From positions 24,992 through 88,991 of the forward strand of contig JAPPEU010000033.1 in NCBI GenBank assembly GCA_028875245.1: a DNA stretch of 64,000 bases, written 5' to 3'. Under the pieces are notes generated by a model. That model had not been told where the DNA came from. It saw only the letters and a program-made list of their open reading frames with translations, and made no database searches. Each line of letters begins with the position of its first letter. The first letter of the stretch is position 1. This DNA is from Chloroflexota bacterium. GTDB taxonomy: Bacteria; Chloroflexota; Anaerolineae; Aggregatilineales; Phototrophicaceae. The translations under genes and the position numbers were made by a program. Shown here one piece after another: positions 3,140 through 64,000 of this stretch.

Positions 3140-4906
3140 CTACAAGCCCGCTTTGTCGAGTTCATCCTGCAGGGCGGGCAGGCGCGCGAACTCCCGCCGC
3201 AAATCAGCAATGAGCCTTTGCCAGCCTGCGCTTTTGTTCATTTGTCGATACATCTCCCGGACCTCTCTCAATAGTTTTGCCGCCTGCGCATAATCCTTCC
3301 TGCTTCTAAGATCAATCTCGGCGCGGGCGTATTTGATGTAGATCGGGATGGCGAGGGCCGGTCGTACATGGCCTGATTTTTCCGCCACAGTGAAGTCGAG
3401 ACGGTAGATCACCTGCGAGGGATGATGATCCTGTCGCTGAGAAACTTTGCCTAAGGCATCCCAGGCCAAATCCCAATCTTCATCATGCAAATAGGCTTCG
3501 GCGAGTACCGCGTAAACCTCTTTCCGTTTGAGTTCGCTGATAACTTTTGGGCGGGTACTCCCCCAGCCCCCGACCGCTTCGGCCGCAGCGCGCAAACCGA
3601 TATAATGGTTGATATGCGGGTCTCTTCGCATCCGATTTAACTGCCAGCGAAATTCCGCTTTTCCATCACCTTGTTTCCGATACAAGTCGATAAGCCAGTC
3701 CGCAATTCGGCTGTCATAGTCGCTTTCCAACGCCGCTTCCGCCAGTTGAATCGCCCTTTGGTTCTGCCGATGCTCGACGAGCAAATCAAGTCCGCGCTGT
3801 AATTCATACGCGGGATGCAATTTCGCTACAACGCCGGCAGCCTCTTCATAACGTTTCAACTCAAGCAGCGCGCTGGCTTGTGAATAATGCAACTCTTTCG
3901 CTTGAAGCCGTTTGAGTGTTTCTTCAGGATCGGTCGAATCAATCTTGTCTAATGCCATCAAAAAATACTCATAAGCCTCGCCAGTCCAATTGCTGTAATA
4001 TTCTTCTTCGCTTTTACGCTCCTCAGCCAAGCGAATGCGCTCACGGATGCGGGGGGTATCAGCCGGCTGCGCGATTTCCAGGATAATCTCATCCGCTTCA
4101 TCCGCATAGCCAATCCCGCCAAAGTCGATATCCCATATCACTGCGCCCGTCAGCAGATCGAGCAGGCCTTGGCGCAAATCTTCATGTTGATCCATATCAA
4201 GATGAGAAAGGGCTTCTTGCAAGCGGGAGACGGTGTTGTTGATCGCCTCAATGTATTGCCCTTCATCATCCGTTGGATAGGCATTGGCGTTGCATTCTTC
4301 GAGAATGGCGCAATAGATGGCAATGGCATGGACGTAATCGCCGCGCCAGGCATAGCGATCGCCCAGGCTGGCGAGTTCGTAGACCTTGTTTTCGGCGACG
4401 CGATCCATCCATTCTCCGCCAAAGTCTAAAGCCGCCTTTAATTCACGGTGAATGGCTGTTAAGTCAATGAGTTGGTTTGGAAAGCCATCGACTGTCGCGT
4501 GTTCAACAATATCTTCAAGATCAGGGTAGCGTACAATCATCGCTTCAATGATGTCAAGCAAATCCCGTTTCTCGCGCGACATGAGTTCATCCCGCAGAGT
4601 CTTGCGCTTCTCAAAATGTTCTGGCTGGCGCAAATACGCGAGCAGCATGGCGACGATATGCTTGCAGTCCCCGCCCCAATCATATTCGCAGCTGCAACTT
4701 GCGGCGGCAATTTCCGCGTCTATGAATTTTGCCCATACTCGATAGGGTTGAGCATAGGATCCTTGGCAGCGCGCGCTGATCTCATCGCCTCGGCGAACGG
4801 GCGAAGAGATAGCGCCATTCTCATAAAGCGTTTTGCCACGGTCAAAACTTTTGCCAACAGTACGCTCTGTAATCTGCTGAAGGTCTAAGCTGATTTCAAC
4901 GGACAC
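3140..4906 (-). CDS. SWIM zinc-finger protein with long helical-repeat (TPR-like) C-terminal region
   Basis: CxC-x7-CxH signature 'CSCEYDWGGDCKHIVAMLL' follows an N-terminal beta region, then ~450 aa of helical repeats. Confidence 0.75.
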   Translation of the reverse strand: MSVEISLDLQQITERTVGKSFDRGKTLYENGAISSPVRRGDEISARCQGSYAQPYRVWAKFIDAEIAAASCSCEYDWGGDCKHIVAMLLAYLRQPEHFEKRKTLRDELMSREKRDLLDIIEAMIVRYPDLEDIVEHATVDGFPNQLIDLTAIHRELKAALDFGGEWMDRVAENKVYELASLGDRYAWRGDYVHAIAIYCAILEECNANAYPTDDEGQYIEAINNTVSRLQEALSHLDMDQHEDLRQGLLDLLTGAVIWDIDFGGIGYADEADEIILEIAQPADTPRIRERIRLAEERKSEEEYYSNWTGEAYEYFLMALDKIDSTDPEETLKRLQAKELHYSQASALLELKRYEEAAGVVAKLHPAYELQRGLDLLVEHRQNQRAIQLAEAALESDYDSRIADWLIDLYRKQGDGKAEFRWQLNRMRRDPHINHYIGLRAAAEAVGGWGSTRPKVISELKRKEVYAVLAEAYLHDEDWDLAWDALGKVSQRQDHHPSQVIYRLDFTVAEKSGHVRPALAIPIYIKYARAEIDLRSRKDYAQAAKLLREVREMYRQMNKSAGWQRLIADLRREFARLPALQDELDKAGL

Positions 4907-58646: not shown

Positions 58647-59564
58647 ATGACTAGGCCTGATTATCTAGCGATCGGCAGCATCATCATCGACGACATCGTC
58701 TATCCCGACGGTCGCACGAGCATGGGCGTGCTGGGCGGCGGCGGCAGTCACGCGGCTTACGGCATCGCCTTCGCTGGCGAGAAGCCGGGGCTGGTCGGTT
58801 TGGTCGGCGAGGACCTGCCGGGCGATATCCGCGCGCGCCTGGAAGCCGATTTCGAGCCTGCCGGTCTCGTCTGGACGCGGCATCCGCAGCTGCGCGGCTG
58901 GCAGATATTCGAGTGGAACGGCGTCCGCAACGAGATCTTCCGCGTCGAGGTCGTTGAGCCATTTATGTATGGTCCGGCCGCCGACAGCGCCGCCGTGCCT
59001 TTCGAGAGCGTGCGCGGTTTCACGCTGCTGCGCGCGCCGGAGCATGTCGCCGGTTGGCGCGCCCGCTACCCGGAGGCGGTGCTGCTCTGGGAACCGGTGC
59101 GCATTTTCATGCTCAGCGCCGAGCGCGAAGCCTTCCTGGAGGGCGTCAAACCGGCCGATATCGTCTCGCCCAACCTGCACGAAGCGGGGACGATGTACGG
59201 CATCGAGGACGAAATCGAGATCATGCGCCGGATGCTGGCCGATGGCGTGAAGGTGGCGGCCCTGCGCATGGGCGAGCTCGGCTCATTGGTGGCGCGGGCG
59301 GGCGATGGGCGCGCCTATTACATCCCCGCCGTCGAAGTGGCTGAGGTGGTCGATCAAACGGGGGCGGGCAATACCTATTGCGGCGGCTTTTTGGTCGGCT
59401 GGTGCCGCGGGGGCGATGTCGTGACGGCGGGCTGTTATGGCGCGGCGGCGGCGTCTTTCACGCTGGAGGCGGTCGGCTGCGCGCGGATGCCGGCGGAGCT
59501 GGCGCTGGAGTGGGCGCGCAGGTTGGATGAAGCGCGGGCCGGGGTGCGGTCCGTAGCGCTCTGA
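58647..59564 (+). CDS. PfkB-family kinase-like protein with GAGN instead of GAGD
   Basis: 'AIGSIIIDDIV' and 'VVDQTGAGNTYCGGF'. The AAT codon is at 59370..59372. Confidence 0.75.
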   Translation: MTRPDYLAIGSIIIDDIVYPDGRTSMGVLGGGGSHAAYGIAFAGEKPGLVGLVGEDLPGDIRARLEADFEPAGLVWTRHPQLRGWQIFEWNGVRNEIFRVEVVEPFMYGPAADSAAVPFESVRGFTLLRAPEHVAGWRARYPEAVLLWEPVRIFMLSAEREAFLEGVKPADIVSPNLHEAGTMYGIEDEIEIMRRMLADGVKVAALRMGELGSLVARAGDGRAYYIPAVEVAEVVDQTGAGNTYCGGFLVGWCRGGDVVTAGCYGAAAASFTLEAVGCARMPAELALEWARRLDEARAGVRSVAL

Positions 59565-59647
59565 GATTCCATCTATGAAGCTCGGGGCCGTCTGTGCCTC
59601 CTTATTGATGAATCTGCAAAGTGCCATCTGCAATCGTAGCGAAATTT

Positions 59648-59821
59648 GTAGGGGCGAGAGACGGTCAGTGTCTACGCGACCCTTGTCTCGCCCTACGAGC
59701 TCGCGATATCGCATGGACGGGCGTTTCAGCGAAACGCCCCTACAGCTTCCTTTTGTCGGGGATCCGTAATTTTGTGTGAGCCACGTCGTGACCTGTGAGG
59801 GGCTGTGCGCAAATCATCCGT
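59648..59821. repeat. composite repeat block plus ~75-bp module, copy 1 of the asnB 3' duplication
   Basis: GTAGGGGCGAGAGACGGTCAGTGTCTACGCGACCCTTGTCTCGCCCTAC..GGGCGTTTCAGCGAAACGCCCCTACAGCTTCC...TGAGCCACGTCGTGACCTGTGAGGGGCTGTGCGCAAATCATCCGT. Confidence 0.75.
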
Positions 59822-59919
59822 ATGTTCCTGGCGCACAGCGTCAACTTGCTGACGTACCCAAACCAGGAACGCCAAAACGCCGCTTGCCACGCCCACCAGA
59901 GCGGCAAGCGAAGTGAGGA

Positions 59920-60072
59920 TTACGAGATCCACGTATGCCCGCTCAGGAGAAGAACGCTCAAAACCGCGAACAATATGGCCAAGTAGAACGACAGGATTAT
60001 GACCAAGGCGAAGAATGCAGTGGGAATCTGTCGGCGACGCCTTTCCAAAGAATTGTCCACATCGCTCATCAT
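59920..60072 (-). CDS. candidate 50-aa single-pass membrane peptide (MMSDVDNSLERRRRQIPTAFFALVIILSFYLAILFAVLSVLLLSGHTWIS)
   Basis: Not in the supplied track because it is under 60 aa. GAGGAC RBS 5 nt before ATGATG at 60072. Basic N-terminus plus one long hydrophobic helix. Lies inside a low-GC cargo flanked by direct repeats. It competes with the 163-aa track ORF in another frame. Confidence 0.3.
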   Translation of the reverse strand: MMSDVDNSLERRRRQIPTAFFALVIILSFYLAILFAVLSVLLLSGHTWIS

Positions 60073-60189
60073 TTGAGTCCTCTACAACTTCAGTTTGATT
60101 ATATCCATTCATGGCGAAGCAATCAAGAATTCCTTCGCTCCACCCTATACTATGAGCCACGTCGTGACCTGCGAGGGCTTGTGGTGAAA

Positions 60190-62070
60190 TCATCCGTCCA
60201 CAAACTGACGATGCCATTCCTCCAGCGTGAGCAGGGCCCAGAGCTGCCGATTGTGATCACGCGCGCCCGCTTCGTGCTCGGCGATTAAACGCTCGACCGC
60301 CGAGATCTCCAGCAAGCCGCGTTCGCGCGCCCGCCGGCTGAGCAAGAGCTCGCGCATTGGCGCCATATCGCGCCGGAGCCAAGCGCCCAGCGGTACGCCA
60401 AAGCCGTGCTTTTTCCGGTCGATGATCTCGGGGGGGAGCAAGCCCTGCGCCGCCTCTTTGAGAATATGCTTGCTGCGCGAGCCTTTGAGCTTGAGGTTGA
60501 ATGGGATGATGGCGGCGGATTCAGCGAGCTCATGATCAAGGAAGGGGGCGCGCGTTTCCAGCGAGGCGGCCATGCTGCAGCGGTCGGCTTTGATCAGCAG
60601 GTCGTCGGGCAGATAAGACCGCATATTCGCTTGCACAAGTTCGGCGACAGGCTGAGTTTGGCCGGGATTCATATAGGCATTCATGGTCGGCTGAGTTGGA
60701 TCGGCCTTGGGGCAGATATCCGCCAGCAGCGTCGCATCGAAAATGCGGACCAGGTCGAAATAAGCATCCGCCAACCCTTGACTCGCCGCCCGCGCGAAAC
60801 GACGGGCGCGCTTGATCGGGTCATAGTAACCGGTTCCCTCTGGCAAGCGCCGGAGCAATTCGGCCGCGCCGCGCAGAAACGGCCCCGGCATGAATTGGAG
60901 CTTTCGCATCAGATCGACGGCGTAGAAGCGCTCATAGCCGGCGAAGAGCTCATCGCCGCCATCGCCGGTCAGCGCGACCGTCACCTGTTCGCGCGTGAGC
61001 TTGCTGACCAGGTAGGTGGGGATGGCGCTGCTATCGGCGAAGGGCTGATCGTGATGCCGGACCAGGTCGGAGAGCAGGCTCAATGCCTCGGGCTCGACGC
61101 GGAACGTGGAGTGCTCGGTCTCGAGATGGCGGGCGACTTTCTCGGCGTAGAGGCTTTCGTCGAAGGTCTCATCGCCCGCGAAGCCGATGCTGAAGGTTTT
61201 GATGGCGCTGTTGCTGCCCCGGCGCATCAGGGCGACGATCAGGCTGCTGTCGAGGCCGCCGCTCAAAAAGGCGCCCAGCGGCACATCGCTGATCAGGCGC
61301 AGTTTCACCGCTTCCGCCAGCTGTTCGCGCAGATCGCCGACATAAGTCGCCGCCTTGGCCGCCGGTTCGGGGGGCGCGAGCGGGGGCAAGTCCCAATAGC
61401 GCTGCTCCCGCGTCGCGCCGGATGGCTCGACATGCAGGGCACTCGCCGGTTGAAGCATGTGTATGCCGGCGAATGCGGTCTGTGGCGCTGGCACATAGCC
61501 GAAACTCAGGTACGCAGCCAGCGCGCGCCGGTCATCTCCCTCGAAGCGGGAGACGCGGGGTATAGCGGGATGCGCCAATAGTGCCTTGATCTCGCTGGCG
61601 AATGCGAAGACCTTGTTGTTCGCATAATAATAGAGCGGCTTCTGGCCGAAGCGGTCGCGCGCCAGGAGCAGGCGCCGCCGCCGCCCGTCCCAAAGCGCCA
61701 GCGCGAACATGCCGCGCAGGTGCTTCAGCGCGTCGGGGCCATGATCCTCGTAGAGATGAGCGATCGTTTCGCCATCGCCATCGGTTTTGAAGCGGTGCCC
61801 GCGCCCCATGAGCTGGCGGCGCAGCGCGCGATAATTGTAGATTTCGCCGTTGAAGATGAGGACAACGGAGCCGTCTTCGCTGCTGAGCGGCTGATCGCTG
61901 CCGGCGATGTCGATGATTTTCAGGCGGCGCATCGCCAGACCGATGTTTCCGTCGCTGAAATAACCAGCGCCGTCGGGACCGCGATGAGCGAGCCGCTCGT
62001 TCATGCCCGTCAGCAGCGCGCGACTGACCGGCTTTCCGTCGAAATGGATGACGCCGCAGATTCCGCACAT
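60190..62070 (-). CDS. asnB: asparagine synthase (glutamine-hydrolysing)
   Basis: N-terminal 'MCGICGV' Ntn-amidotransferase nucleophile. 'SGGLDSS' PP-loop. 626 aa. Confidence 0.9.
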   Translation of the reverse strand: MCGICGVIHFDGKPVSRALLTGMNERLAHRGPDGAGYFSDGNIGLAMRRLKIIDIAGSDQPLSSEDGSVVLIFNGEIYNYRALRRQLMGRGHRFKTDGDGETIAHLYEDHGPDALKHLRGMFALALWDGRRRRLLLARDRFGQKPLYYYANNKVFAFASEIKALLAHPAIPRVSRFEGDDRRALAAYLSFGYVPAPQTAFAGIHMLQPASALHVEPSGATREQRYWDLPPLAPPEPAAKAATYVGDLREQLAEAVKLRLISDVPLGAFLSGGLDSSLIVALMRRGSNSAIKTFSIGFAGDETFDESLYAEKVARHLETEHSTFRVEPEALSLLSDLVRHHDQPFADSSAIPTYLVSKLTREQVTVALTGDGGDELFAGYERFYAVDLMRKLQFMPGPFLRGAAELLRRLPEGTGYYDPIKRARRFARAASQGLADAYFDLVRIFDATLLADICPKADPTQPTMNAYMNPGQTQPVAELVQANMRSYLPDDLLIKADRCSMAASLETRAPFLDHELAESAAIIPFNLKLKGSRSKHILKEAAQGLLPPEIIDRKKHGFGVPLGAWLRRDMAPMRELLLSRRARERGLLEISAVERLIAEHEAGARDHNRQLWALLTLEEWHRQFVDG

Positions 62071-62168
62071 GTCGAGCGGTCCTCGCTTTGAATCAGCCGT
62101 ATGGTATTATGTACTGTAAAGGCTGCGCAAGATCTCATGCGAAGCCACTCTCACCTAGCAAAGTTTTG

Positions 62169-62197
62169 TTGACCAATGGTCAGAACCGCGTTATGCT
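62169..62197 (+). promoter_or_regulatory. sigma-70-like promoter TTGACC-17-TATGCT for the small gene at 62221
   Basis: -35 at 62169..62174, 17-nt spacer, -10 at 62192..62197. GGGAGG RBS at 62210..62215. Confidence 0.45.
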
Positions 62198-62220
62198 GCG
62201 GACAATTATGGGAGGCGCTT

Positions 62221-62469
62221 ATGGTCGCCGAAGCAAAATCCGGTCAAGACGTCGAACGACTGGCAGTTATCGAAACTCGGATGGACTCATTCGTCGCGAA
62301 GGATCAACACGAACGCGACAACGGCGACATTAAGGTTGCCCTCGCCCAACTCCGTGGCGAAGTCAACAATCTGCGAACCGATATCAAGAATCTCACCTGG
62401 CAGATTGCGGTGGTAGTCGCCATCCTGTCCAGCATCATTTCCTTCCTGGTAAGCAGAATCCCCATTTAG
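62221..62469 (+). CDS. small coiled-coil protein with C-terminal transmembrane helix (XhlA-like topology)
   Basis: GGGAGG RBS 5 nt before the ATG at 62221. 'LAQLRGEVNNLRTDIKNLTWQIAVVVAILSSIISFLV'. Lower GC than its flanks. Confidence 0.5.
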   Translation: MVAEAKSGQDVERLAVIETRMDSFVAKDQHERDNGDIKVALAQLRGEVNNLRTDIKNLTWQIAVVVAILSSIISFLVSRIPI

Positions 62470-62490
62470 CCGGCGACGCCAACCGGCGGT

Positions 62491-62529
62491 TTTCCGTCGA
62501 AATGGATGACGCCGCAGATTCCGCACATG
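62491..62529 (-). repeat. orphan duplicate of the asnB start (ATG + 13 codons)
   Basis: 39 nt identical to 62033..62071. It reads MCGICGVIHFDGKPPVGVAG, then stop. Confidence 0.85.
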
Positions 62530-62674
62530 ACTTTAGTCTAGCACCTGGATGGCGTTGCCTATCATACAGCGCGCGCCGCCGGATTACCCAATCTATTGAA
62601 GCGGCAGTGGCGTTAATGTATGGCTCGCTGTCATAGTTTTTGCGTCGGTGTAGTCGCTGGTATGAGGAAGGAAA

Positions 62675-64000
62675 TCAATCCAGCGGCGAGCGCAAATGCC
62701 AATCGGTCGCGCGCTGATAAGCCGCGCCCACTTGCAGGAGGCGCTCCTCCGTGAAGGGCGCGCCCAGGATTTGCAAGCCGATGGGCAAGCCGGCCGCGTC
62801 AAAGCCGCAGGGCAGGCTCAGGCCGGGGATGCCGGCCAGATTGGCCGATATCGTCAGCACATCGGCCAGGATCATACGCAGGGGATCCTCGGTCACCTCG
62901 CCGAATTTGAAGGCGGTGGATGGGGCGACCGGCGCGATCAAGACATCGACCTCGTTGAAGAGCGCGTCGAAGTCCTGCCGGATGAGCGTACGCACCGCCT
63001 GCGCCTTGCCATAGTAGGCGTCGTAATAGCCGGCCGAGAGCGTATAGGTGCCCAGCATGATGCGGCGCTTAACCTCTTCGCCGAAGCCGGCGCCACGCGT
63101 CTTTTTGTAGGTATCGATCAGATCGGCGCCATCGACGCGGGCGCCAAAACGGACGCCGTCGTAGCGGGCCAGGTTGGCGCTCGCCTCCGCCATGGCGATG
63201 ATGTAATAGGCGGGCAGGCAATAATCAGCGTGCTCAAAGCTGACTTCGCGCGCCTCGGCGCCCATGCCCTCCAAAGCAGTCACCGCCGCGCGCACCGCCG
63301 ACTCCACCGCCGGCTGCAAACCCTCGGCGAAGTATTCTTTGGGCAAACCGATTTTCAAGCCGCGGATGTCGCCGCTGAGCGCCGCGGCATAATCAGGCGC
63401 GGGCGTCGGCATGCTGGTCGAATCGAGCGGGTCCTGCCCGGCGATGACCGCCAGGACGCGCGCCAGATCGTCGACTGTGCGGGCGAAGGGGCCGGCCTGG
63501 TCGAAGGAGGAGCCATAAGCGATCAAGCCATAACGCGAGACGCGCCCGTAGCTTGGCTTGATGGCGGATACGCCGCAGAATGAGGCGGGCTGGCGAATGC
63601 TGCCGCCGGTGTCCGTGCCCAGGGTCGCCAGCGCCATGTTCGCCGCCACCGCCGCCGCGCTGCCGCCGCTGCTGCCGCCGGGCACATGATCGAGATTCCA
63701 GGGATTGGCGGTGGGGAAGAAGCCGCTGTTTTCGGTCGACGAGCCCATGGCGAACTCGTCCATATTCAGCTTGCCGAGCATGACGGCGCCGGCGGCATAC
63801 AGGCGGGCGACGGCGGTCGCGTCGAAGAGCGGACGATAACCCCGCAAGATTTTCGAGCCGCAGGTGGTTTCGATGCCTCTGGTCGAGAGCACATCCTTGA
63901 GGGCGATGGGGATGCCCAGCAGCGGGCGCTCGTCGCCGGCCGCGCGCGCCGCGTCAGCCGCCCGGGCCTGTTCGCGGGCAAAATCAGCGCTGACGGTCAA
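62675..64000 (-). CDS. gatA: Asp-tRNA(Asn)/Glu-tRNA(Gln) amidotransferase subunit A (5' end outside window)
   Basis: Amidase signature '[13 protein letters not shown]' and '[18 protein letters not shown]'. The ORF is open to the window edge. Confidence 0.9.

Follow-up and report, generated by a model that had tools for sequence, protein, structure and literature searches.

The subject of this study is a 45-nucleotide (nt) direct repeat at the end of asnB, the gene for glutamine-hydrolysing asparagine synthase, in a window of 64,000 nt from contig JAPPEU010000033.1 of a Chloroflexota bacterium (assembly GCA_028875245.1), the host population being sponge-associated Chloroflexota. One copy of the repeat overlaps the stop codon of asnB, and the other lies in the spacer between asnB and a convergent kinase gene of the PfkB family, called pfkB here. 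Our analysis indicates that the repeat is probably the junction of a hybrid allele, namely allele R, which arose by recombination of two versions of this spacer: one with a cassette of two small genes, ORF1 and ORF2 (ORF, open reading frame), and one with a dispersed element and no cassette. On this reading the locus is an ordinary recombination scar involving a repeat that resembles repetitive extragenic palindromic (REP) sequences and miniature inverted-repeat transposable elements (MITEs), plus two orphan small-protein genes, and it belongs to ordinary micro-evolution.

Structure of the repeat

Copy 1 of the repeat occupies 59777-59821 and copy 2 occupies 60153-60197, both on the minus strand, and the copies are identical at 39 of 45 positions, with a start-to-start distance of 376 nt. 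Copy 2 overlaps the last asnB codons and the TGA at 60190-60192. The 19-mer TGAGCCACGTCGTGACCTG, which is shared by the two copies, occurs exactly twice in the window, against 0.02 occurrences expected from shuffles, and it has no further copy in the 4.2-Mb genome. Between the copies lie 331 nt with a GC content of 0.50, vs 0.63-0.66 in the flanks. An earlier note on this DNA had described the repeat, and its coordinates, its six mismatches in 45 nt and its overlap with the asnB stop are all borne out; the similarity is far above chance.

Both copies are composite. In copy 2, positions 60190-60197 are the last asnB codons with the stop, and 60153-60187 are a solitary 35-nt unit called S*, a variant of the terminal sub-unit S of a dispersed element. 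In copy 1, the S* sub-unit CTCACAGGTCACGACGTGGCTCA is found at 59777-59799, and 59800-59821 form a patch, ACGGATGATTTGCGCACAGCCC, which is native to ORF2.

Three alleles of the asnB-pfkB spacer

Conspecific contigs were recovered by exact-protein look-ups, with an asnB nucleotide identity of at least 98.3%, and they fall into three alleles of the spacer. A pattern scan of metagenome contigs for an empty-site junction had no match, probably as records near to this genome were absent from that set. Allele C (L111, L112, L114-L117 and L121; sequencing runs X3-X5) has the cassette with the 3' end of ORF2 intact, no element and no copy 1. It is the same as the window from asnB via copy 2, ORF1 and ORF2 to ..ACAGCCC; beyond this point it has GTGGGGAAATCTATGAGCAATTGCG.., the orthologous 3' part of ORF2 and then 48 nt before the pfkB stop. 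The match of the C-type contigs to the window is confined to positions from 59800 up, the divergence point being exactly 59799/59800, where they go on with ..RGEIYEQLRRELS... Allele E (L118) consists of the asnB stop, S, the rest of the element and the pfkB stop in a 249-nt spacer without the cassette, and run X6 has zero depth over 59821-60139, as for allele E. Allele R, the hybrid with the repeat, is that of the window, L109 and L110 as well as runs X1 and X2. The segment is thus found in some strains and missing from others, L118 having an allele without it.

Alleles C and E come from independent samples. The left half of allele R matches C up to 59800, and its right half matches E, the junction with the pfkB stop included. 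The rest of the element is nearly identical in R and E, with about three differences in about 235 nt counted by eye, and both alleles have the same junction ..GATGGAATC|TCA, in which TCA is the pfkB stop. The 26 nt between the element and the pfkB stop (59565..59590), which are present in alleles R and E and not in C, have no second copy in the genome, and no donor for them was found there. The C order, with the same junction of ORF2, 48 nt and pfkB, is also seen in the sister-species contigs L122 and L120 (asnB identity of 86%). Because L122 has the C architecture, allele C appears to be ancestral and alleles E and R derived. Single-nucleotide polymorphisms (SNPs) follow a mosaic pattern along asnB in the four strains compared, which shows that strains of this population recombine freely.

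One of the C-type contigs departs from this description, since in L111, a JGI contig (3300009937), the pfkB match is limited to the last 267 nt and is followed by unrelated sequence (about 3770-4086). Another C-type contig, L121, has an intact pfkB, so that L111 is either a further rearrangement or a chimeric contig.

The co-occurrence of C-type and E-type strains in sponge metagenomes from the same studies raises the question whether allele R is a chimera of assembly, in which the metagenome-assembled genome (MAG) would merge reads of both types. Unbranched Logan contigs of two runs, however, cross the whole structure of copy 1, insert, copy 2 and asnB (X1, 59675-62062; X2, 59717-60973), and the same order is given by independent ENA and JGI assemblies from other samples (L109 and L110), L110 having SNPs of its own and a 1-nt deletion. 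The probability of an assembly chimera is negligible.

Native ORF2 codons in copy 1 and a resident cassette

In the earlier note the repeat was explained by an insertion: a foreign cargo of about 330 bp would have entered after asnB with duplication of about 45 bp of target. On that model allele E would be the empty site. A cargo-free allele with a single asnB stop, S and the rest of the element does exist (L118; run X6), the repeat is highly non-random, and other gene-end duplications flank low-GC inserts in this genome. Nevertheless, the asnB-like half of copy 1 is ORF2 coding sequence, which is kept in species and strains without the repeat. The reverse complement of 59800-59821 reads ACG GAT GAT TTG CGC ACA GCC, i.e. 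the ORF2 codons T-D-D-L-R-T-A; the peptide ..EHTDDLRTA.. is identical in L120, and the reading ..VRQEHTDDLRTA is homologous in the congeners G010, G003 and G007. What had been taken for an asnB relic, TCATCCGT, reads ACG GAT GA on the minus strand, which is the T-D-D of the conserved ..DDLRTA.. motif of ORF2, and these codons recur, with neither element nor repeat beside them, in conspecific strains as well as sister species. TCATCCGT is thus native ORF2 sequence, because these T-D-D codons are conserved in the ORF2 orthologues. Moreover, the three mismatches TTGCGC vs TTCACC sit exactly where copy 1 follows the ORF2 orthologues. Allele E does have a single copy, but with an S of a different variant, and 22 nt of copy 1 are native ORF2 codons, which is not what a duplicated target gives.

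The supposed cargo itself also argues against an insertion. The comparison of the site used same-genus genomes (24), the closest named asnB match in the genome contigs being only 55% identical, and the convergent pfkB-asnB pair was found syntenic in 19 of 21 congeners. The cassette is orthologous to one at the same asnB-pfkB site in at least nine related species (G002, G003, G007, G009, G010, G015, G020, L120 and L122), with a divergence like that of the flanks: its nucleotide identity to the sister species L122 is 87.7%, vs 85.7% for asnB and 92.1% for pfkB. As its GC content is low in every species compared (0.44-0.54), the low GC is a property of the cassette and not the mark of a recent arrival. 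Allele C has this DNA without copy 1 and fits the architecture of the outgroup. Between the copies there are only ORF1 and ORF2, with no transposase or integrase and no terminal inverted repeats. These comparisons indicate that the cassette is a vertically inherited resident which diverges like the flanking genes, and the insertion model is very improbable.

The dispersed element and its terminal sub-unit

Copy 1 heads a modular composite element of about 220 nt, REP/MITE-like in kind, at 59591..59812 on the minus strand, in which S is followed by the linker CACAAAATTACGG.. and then by GTAG-type GC-rich hairpins. The element gave 184 BLAST matches in the genome, of which about 20 are nearly complete, and the ends they have in common are query positions 24 and 240; in the analysis of the window it corresponds to the repeat families D8, D11 and I5-I14. 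Its copies are many, dispersed and mostly intergenic, and their ends are conserved, as in elements of the REP/MITE type. In allele E this same copy lies directly next to pfkB.

The first 35 nt of each repeat copy are the terminal sub-unit S, which reads TTCACCACAG..GGCTCA on the asnB strand. A regular-expression scan found about 60 copies of S genome-wide, all running on into CACACAAAAT.. and GC-rich GTAG-type hairpins. Copy 1 is followed by the full element, and copy 2 is a solitary S with no rest of the element after it. Past the S terminus, the remaining genomic copies have unrelated flanks, and only copies 1 and 2 share a further ATCATCCGT. Among the approximately 60 copies, the private hairpin variant CAGGTCACGACGTGG, which defines S*, is confined to these two, and the S* of copy 2 is present in all three strain alleles. 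The sister species L122 has a degenerate S-like remnant after its asnB stop, which can be aligned with copy 2 through the next 20 nt; because this remnant is orthologous, copy 2 seems to be an old remnant of the element.

If the module had been inserted after asnB and in ORF2 in two fully independent events, the extra similarity of the two copies would be due to chance without any local copying. It is true that the first 35 nt of each copy come from a family of about 60 copies often found near gene ends, and that element ends vary among copies. On the other hand, the private substitutions CAGGTCACGACGTGG are common to both copies and absent elsewhere, and therefore the S of copy 1 was copied locally and not from a distant master. 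Copy 2 is old, with an orthologue in the sister species, so that its private variants would be missing from a module newly inserted from a distant master, and the junction falls exactly on a patch of 17/23 similarity. Two independent insertions are thus unlikely. The earlier note had allowed that the repeat might be two copies of the module with TCATCCGT shared by chance, and this essentially holds, except that the module copies are not mutually independent. Similarly, its claim of a local duplication is right for the S of copy 1, which was copied from the sequence beside the asnB stop, and wrong for the asnB stop itself, which is not duplicated, the bases in question being ORF2 codons.

Several further observations concern S. 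Paired variants of its hairpin, GAGT-loop-ACTC vs AAGT-loop-ACTT, co-occur in several copies, which may point to selection for pairing in DNA or RNA. Two repeat families have the terminus TTCACCACAG in common. In 39 of 64 matches to the S pattern, an ORF of at least 100 codons ends at most 80 nt upstream. Finally, two weak matches to Y1_Tnp (PF01797), at C36:17395-17559 (24.4 bits) and C79:45114-45431 (22.2 bits; cut-off 23), could be candidate REP-associated tyrosine transposases for the GTAG-type repeats.

Origin of allele R

From these alleles we infer the following scenario. In the ancestral spacer, C, the asnB stop is followed by the old solitary 35-nt S*, the promoter, ORF1 with ORF2 overlapping it, and 48 nt that lead up to the pfkB stop. 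In allele E the cassette is missing, and the S remnant runs into a complete element of about 220 nt that abuts the pfkB stop. Allele R would then have formed when the left part of C, through the ..T-D-D-L-R-T-A of ORF2, was joined to S* and the rest of an E-type right part. The join would fall where the ACGGATGATTTGCGCACAGCCC of ORF2 resembles the asnB stop plus S terminus, ACGGATGATTTCACCACAAGCCC, so that S* now stands twice, each time after ACGGATGATTT, giving the 45-nt repeat; the same join would also have cut off the 3' two-thirds of ORF2. ORF2 and S meet in ..CACAGCCC|C... Copy 1 is absent from allele C, and there the best match of the 23-mer made of asnB stop and S has 17/23 identities and lies exactly at the ORF2 patch, a score reached by 2 of 5000 shuffles; the junction is thus located inside a patch of similarity between the partners.

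Two routes may have led to such a join. The first would be an unequal or homology-facilitated illegitimate crossover between C-type and E-type DNA, anchored in pfkB. The second would be templated repair of a break in ORF2, in which a template at a distance of 376 nt would have supplied S* and an element the remainder; under this route allele E could descend from R via a deletion between the repeats.

Some points weigh against a hybrid of C and E as told above. The 17/23 similarity is itself improbable within allele C (p about 4e-4), the sister species having only a chance-level 14/23, and an earlier exchange between the two sites may have left a few asnB-side bases in ORF2. The sole E allele recovered (L118) has the canonical S hairpin and not S*, with 5 of 16 bases differing; since the exact E-type parent is thus not observed, extra conversion steps have to be assumed. 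In L118 the S is in fact chimeric, the first 18 nt being like copy 2 with its private ..ACAAGCCC.. and the canonical hairpin following, which implies that further exchanges happened. Besides, a simple crossover in CCC should leave three Cs, and copy 1 has four. Two orders of events are conceivable, one being C to E followed by C x E to R, the other C to R followed by R to E by deletion, and the SNP mosaic of asnB is too recombined to assign the parentage of its last 150 nt.

The latter order deserves separate weighing. In this variant, R would have come first from C by templated repair with template switching, from the end of ORF2 to copy 2 and then to an ectopic element, and E would be R minus the segment bounded by the repeat. 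The chimeric S of L118 would be expected from a crossover between the copies if copy 1 once had the canonical hairpin, and in L110-type strains 26 nt are identical between the copies. On the contrary, a later conversion of the copy 1 hairpin to S* would be needed, and no deletion joint was seen among the contigs examined, though contigs drop rare variants. Such an order is possible, with a chance clearly below even, and it is equally tentative that the repeat would be an active substrate of deletion rather than a product of C x E. The repeat may still serve as a substrate for deletion of the cassette. Recombination of two spacer versions in a freely recombining population is still the reading we hold as probable.

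The cassette genes ORF1 and ORF2

ORF1 (59920..60072, minus strand) encodes 50 amino acids (aa), or 49 from its second ATG, with the basic N-terminus RRRRQIPT, one transmembrane helix and the conserved C-terminal LLLSGHTWIS. A sigma-70-like promoter, TTGATT-17-TATAAT with 10/12 matches, is predicted at 60098..60126 on the same strand, its -10 and spacer region being conserved in relatives, and the ribosome-binding site AGAGGA stands 5 nt 5' of the ORF1 ATG. At the same place and in the same orientation, ORF1 occurs with 62-84% aa identity in seven congeners (G002, G003, G007, G009, G010, G015 and G020), and it occurs also in the two sister-species contigs L120 and L122. For eight orthologues the median pairwise ratio of nonsynonymous to synonymous substitution rates (dN/dS) is 0.16-0.17, dS being 0.4-1.7 for almost all pairs, 2.9 for one and saturated for two. 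The family comprises 13 clusters, all of 49-50 aa. The identical protein was found on 10 contigs from several samples, and across conspecific contigs the gene is unchanged except for a synonymous TTG>CTG in some. ORF1 is accordingly a real gene under purifying selection, and the earlier note's view of the 50-aa ORF as a gene with a good ribosome-binding site is upheld by its conservation, its own promoter and AGAGGA.

ORF2 is cut short in the window. Its native part lies at 59800..59932 on the minus strand, beginning with GTG at 59932 and encoding a transmembrane helix and then ..WVRQQVDAVRQEHTDDLRTA; in allele R its frame continues into the element as far as 59726. ORF2 overlaps the 3' end of ORF1 by 13 nt, and its GTG stands 10 nt before the ORF1 stop (GTGGATCTCGTAG). 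Full-length orthologues of 104-108 aa were found in G010, G007, G003, L120 and L122, and their layout is a transmembrane helix, then WVRQQVDAARQEN(A/K)DDLRT(A/V)RGEIY..RRELSAELRA.., and then an acidic tail. The family comprises 32 clusters, mostly of exactly 105 aa. Three independent lesions of ORF2 are present in this species, namely the truncation by the element in R, a 1-nt deletion GGG>GG in L110, and TGG>TAG together with a 1-nt deletion in C, so that ORF2 appears to be decaying in every allele of the species.

Two other interpretations of these frames were rejected. The 163-aa 'track ORF' is the ORF2 remnant plus an upstream frame open by chance, since the frame upstream of the ORF2 GTG is not conserved in relatives, where its open length is only 8-108 codons. 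A programmed frameshift joining ORF1 and ORF2 lacks a slippery heptamer, and a GTG 10 nt before the ORF1 stop fits translational coupling.

Judged from their sequences, the two genes would encode two single-pass membrane proteins on one transcript with translational coupling. The N-terminus of ORF1 is probably inside, given the RRRR before its helix; that of ORF2 would be outside, with a cytoplasmic amphipathic and acidic tail. ORF1 has remained intact in spite of the loss or truncation of ORF2 in G009, G020 and this species, and the whole cassette is gone in allele E, from which ORF1 appears to be a dispensable accessory gene with a function independent of ORF2. Both proteins are lineage-restricted orphans: neither ORF1 and ORF2 nor an 82-aa ORF 5' of asnB had a significant match in Pfam, NCBIfam, PHROGs or PADLOC, and a profile of the ORF1 family, run against 1.84 billion representatives, found only its own family and one spurious repeat protein. 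A permissive Rfam search over 59400-62800 gave no match.

In the earlier note, the size and composition of the 50-aa product were seen as typical of type I toxins. ORF1 might be such a toxin, or a toxin or antitoxin partner of ORF2, the segment then being an addiction module. Its 50 aa, basic N-terminus and single predicted transmembrane helix are those of a small hydrophobic peptide, it is present or absent among strains, and it is retained while ORF2 decays. Against this stand its stable vertical inheritance at one locus across the genus with a dN/dS of 0.16, its ordinary promoter and accessible Shine-Dalgarno site, the lack of an antisense promoter on the opposite strand in the promoter scan and of any Rfam match, and the lack of a match in Pfam, NCBIfam, PHROGs and PADLOC. 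That ORF1 persists without an intact ORF2 in G009, G020 and this species is at odds both with ORF2 as the antitoxin and with ORF1 as no more than an antitoxin. Nothing was found that is toxin-like beyond size and hydrophobicity; an addiction module is improbable, and a type I toxin appears unlikely.

Neighbouring genes and other gene-end repeats

The gene asnB (60190..62070, minus strand) encodes 626 aa with matches to Pfam Asn_synthase (1.3e-104) and GATase_7 (3.4e-46). The convergent pfkB gene (58647..59564, plus strand; Pfam PfkB, 2e-21) forms the right-hand anchor of the variable spacer.

The flanks of asnB are a hot spot for small bitopic membrane-protein genes. Other small ORFs near asnB are found at the congener loci L119, L120, L103 (G017), L100, L105 and L104. 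In other congener species a different ORF, of 119 aa and opposite in strand, occupies the asnB-pfkB spacer; its product combines a coiled coil with a C-terminal transmembrane helix. The 82-aa ORF 5' of asnB has weak hemolysin matches (Pfam XhlA, E = 0.11; PHROGs hemolysin family, E = 0.01), and a 69-aa ORF resembling it, with the motif GDIKV..W.., occurs in G001, G002 and G023. In the sister species L119 and L120, the native asnB promoter ..GCTGTATGATA..GTGCTAGA.TAAA.. lies directly 5' of the asnB ATG and the 82-aa ORF lies upstream of this promoter. In the present species (window 62029-62529), that asnB leader, together with a 43-nt piece from the start of asnB, is found beyond the 82-aa ORF, on its gatA side, and the two would encode the 20-aa peptide MCGICGVIHFDGKPPVGVAG.

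Repeats at gene ends were also seen elsewhere in the genome. At C63:63328-64168 the final 63 nt of a UPF0014 (FetB-like) permease gene have a perfect second copy 778 nt downstream, and a DUF433/DUF5615 toxin-antitoxin-like pair lies between the two; both copies are present in 5/5 strain contigs (loci L123-L127), which diverge right after the TGA of the second copy into at least three different downstream islets. A 6-phosphogluconate dehydrogenase gene has its final 42 nt repeated (40/42) at C31:151877-153423, and the low-GC insert of 1463 bp in between codes for an orphan DNA methyltransferase. An 88-nt direct repeat of 93% identity, ending in a gene-start CAT, brackets a 1526-bp low-GC insert at C75:10101/11715, and a 95-nt direct repeat of 98% identity brackets a 742-bp low-GC insert at C27:28175/29012.

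It is conceivable, and in our judgement rather unlikely, that repeat remnants or duplicated termini of 42-95 nt at the asnB flanks and other gene ends act as portable recombination anchors in a general process at the level of the population. They would shuffle small cassettes (tiny membrane proteins, toxin-antitoxin pairs and orphan methyltransferases) among co-resident symbiont strains without a dedicated recombinase, and ORF1 would represent a new orphan family whose functional membrane proteins of 50 aa survive repeated loss of their partner.

What the locus offers more directly is a fully sequenced example, from recombining uncultured sponge symbionts, of how an old repeat remnant and a patch of chance similarity may yield a hybrid locus together with a direct repeat. 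A false lead is removed as well, in that neither a gene-end-duplicating mobile element nor a toxin cassette appears to reside at the asnB stop, and two small genes that are unannotated or easily missed are added, ORF1 with 50 aa and ORF2 with about 105 aa, the latter truncated here.

Comparison with known systems

ORF1 is like the type I toxins Hok, TisB, Fst, Ldr and Ibs in having fewer than 60 aa, a single hydrophobic helix and charged ends. It differs from them in being syntenic under purifying selection, in its ordinary translation signals and in its putative coupling to a second membrane protein, and for ORF1 no family match, antisense promoter or Rfam match was found.

The element resembles the intergenic repeats known as REP sequences, bacterial interspersed mosaic elements (BIMEs) and MITE-like repeats (PMC3333891, PMC3184786). 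As with these, there are tens to hundreds of dispersed intergenic copies with GC-rich hairpins flanked by GTAG/CTAC, which form modular mosaic arrays near gene 3' ends and are substrates for rearrangement. Unlike them, the element here is composite and about 220 nt in size, its terminal sub-unit, TTCACCACAG..GGCTCA, is distinctive, and no terminal inverted repeats or target duplications were seen for it.

The locus also looks like the attL/attR sites of integrative elements, since accessory DNA lies between direct repeats, one of which reaches a stop codon, and there is a strain that lacks this DNA. The difference is that there is no recombinase gene, the gene end is not duplicated, and the bracketed DNA appears to be an ancestral resident, not a newcomer.

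Homology-facilitated illegitimate recombination at microhomology is known from the natural transformation of Acinetobacter, Streptococcus pneumoniae and Pseudomonas stutzeri. The patch of similarity here exceeds the typical 3-10 nt, and at this locus only a product of the presumed process is seen. Illegitimate recombination at microhomology has been discussed elsewhere (PMC6382021, PMC8116780), and the present case is like it in that one side has full homology (pfkB) and the other junction a short imperfect patch (17/23), with a hybrid locus as the outcome and the intervening 3' part of ORF2 lost; an unequal crossover between alleles would be a related case.

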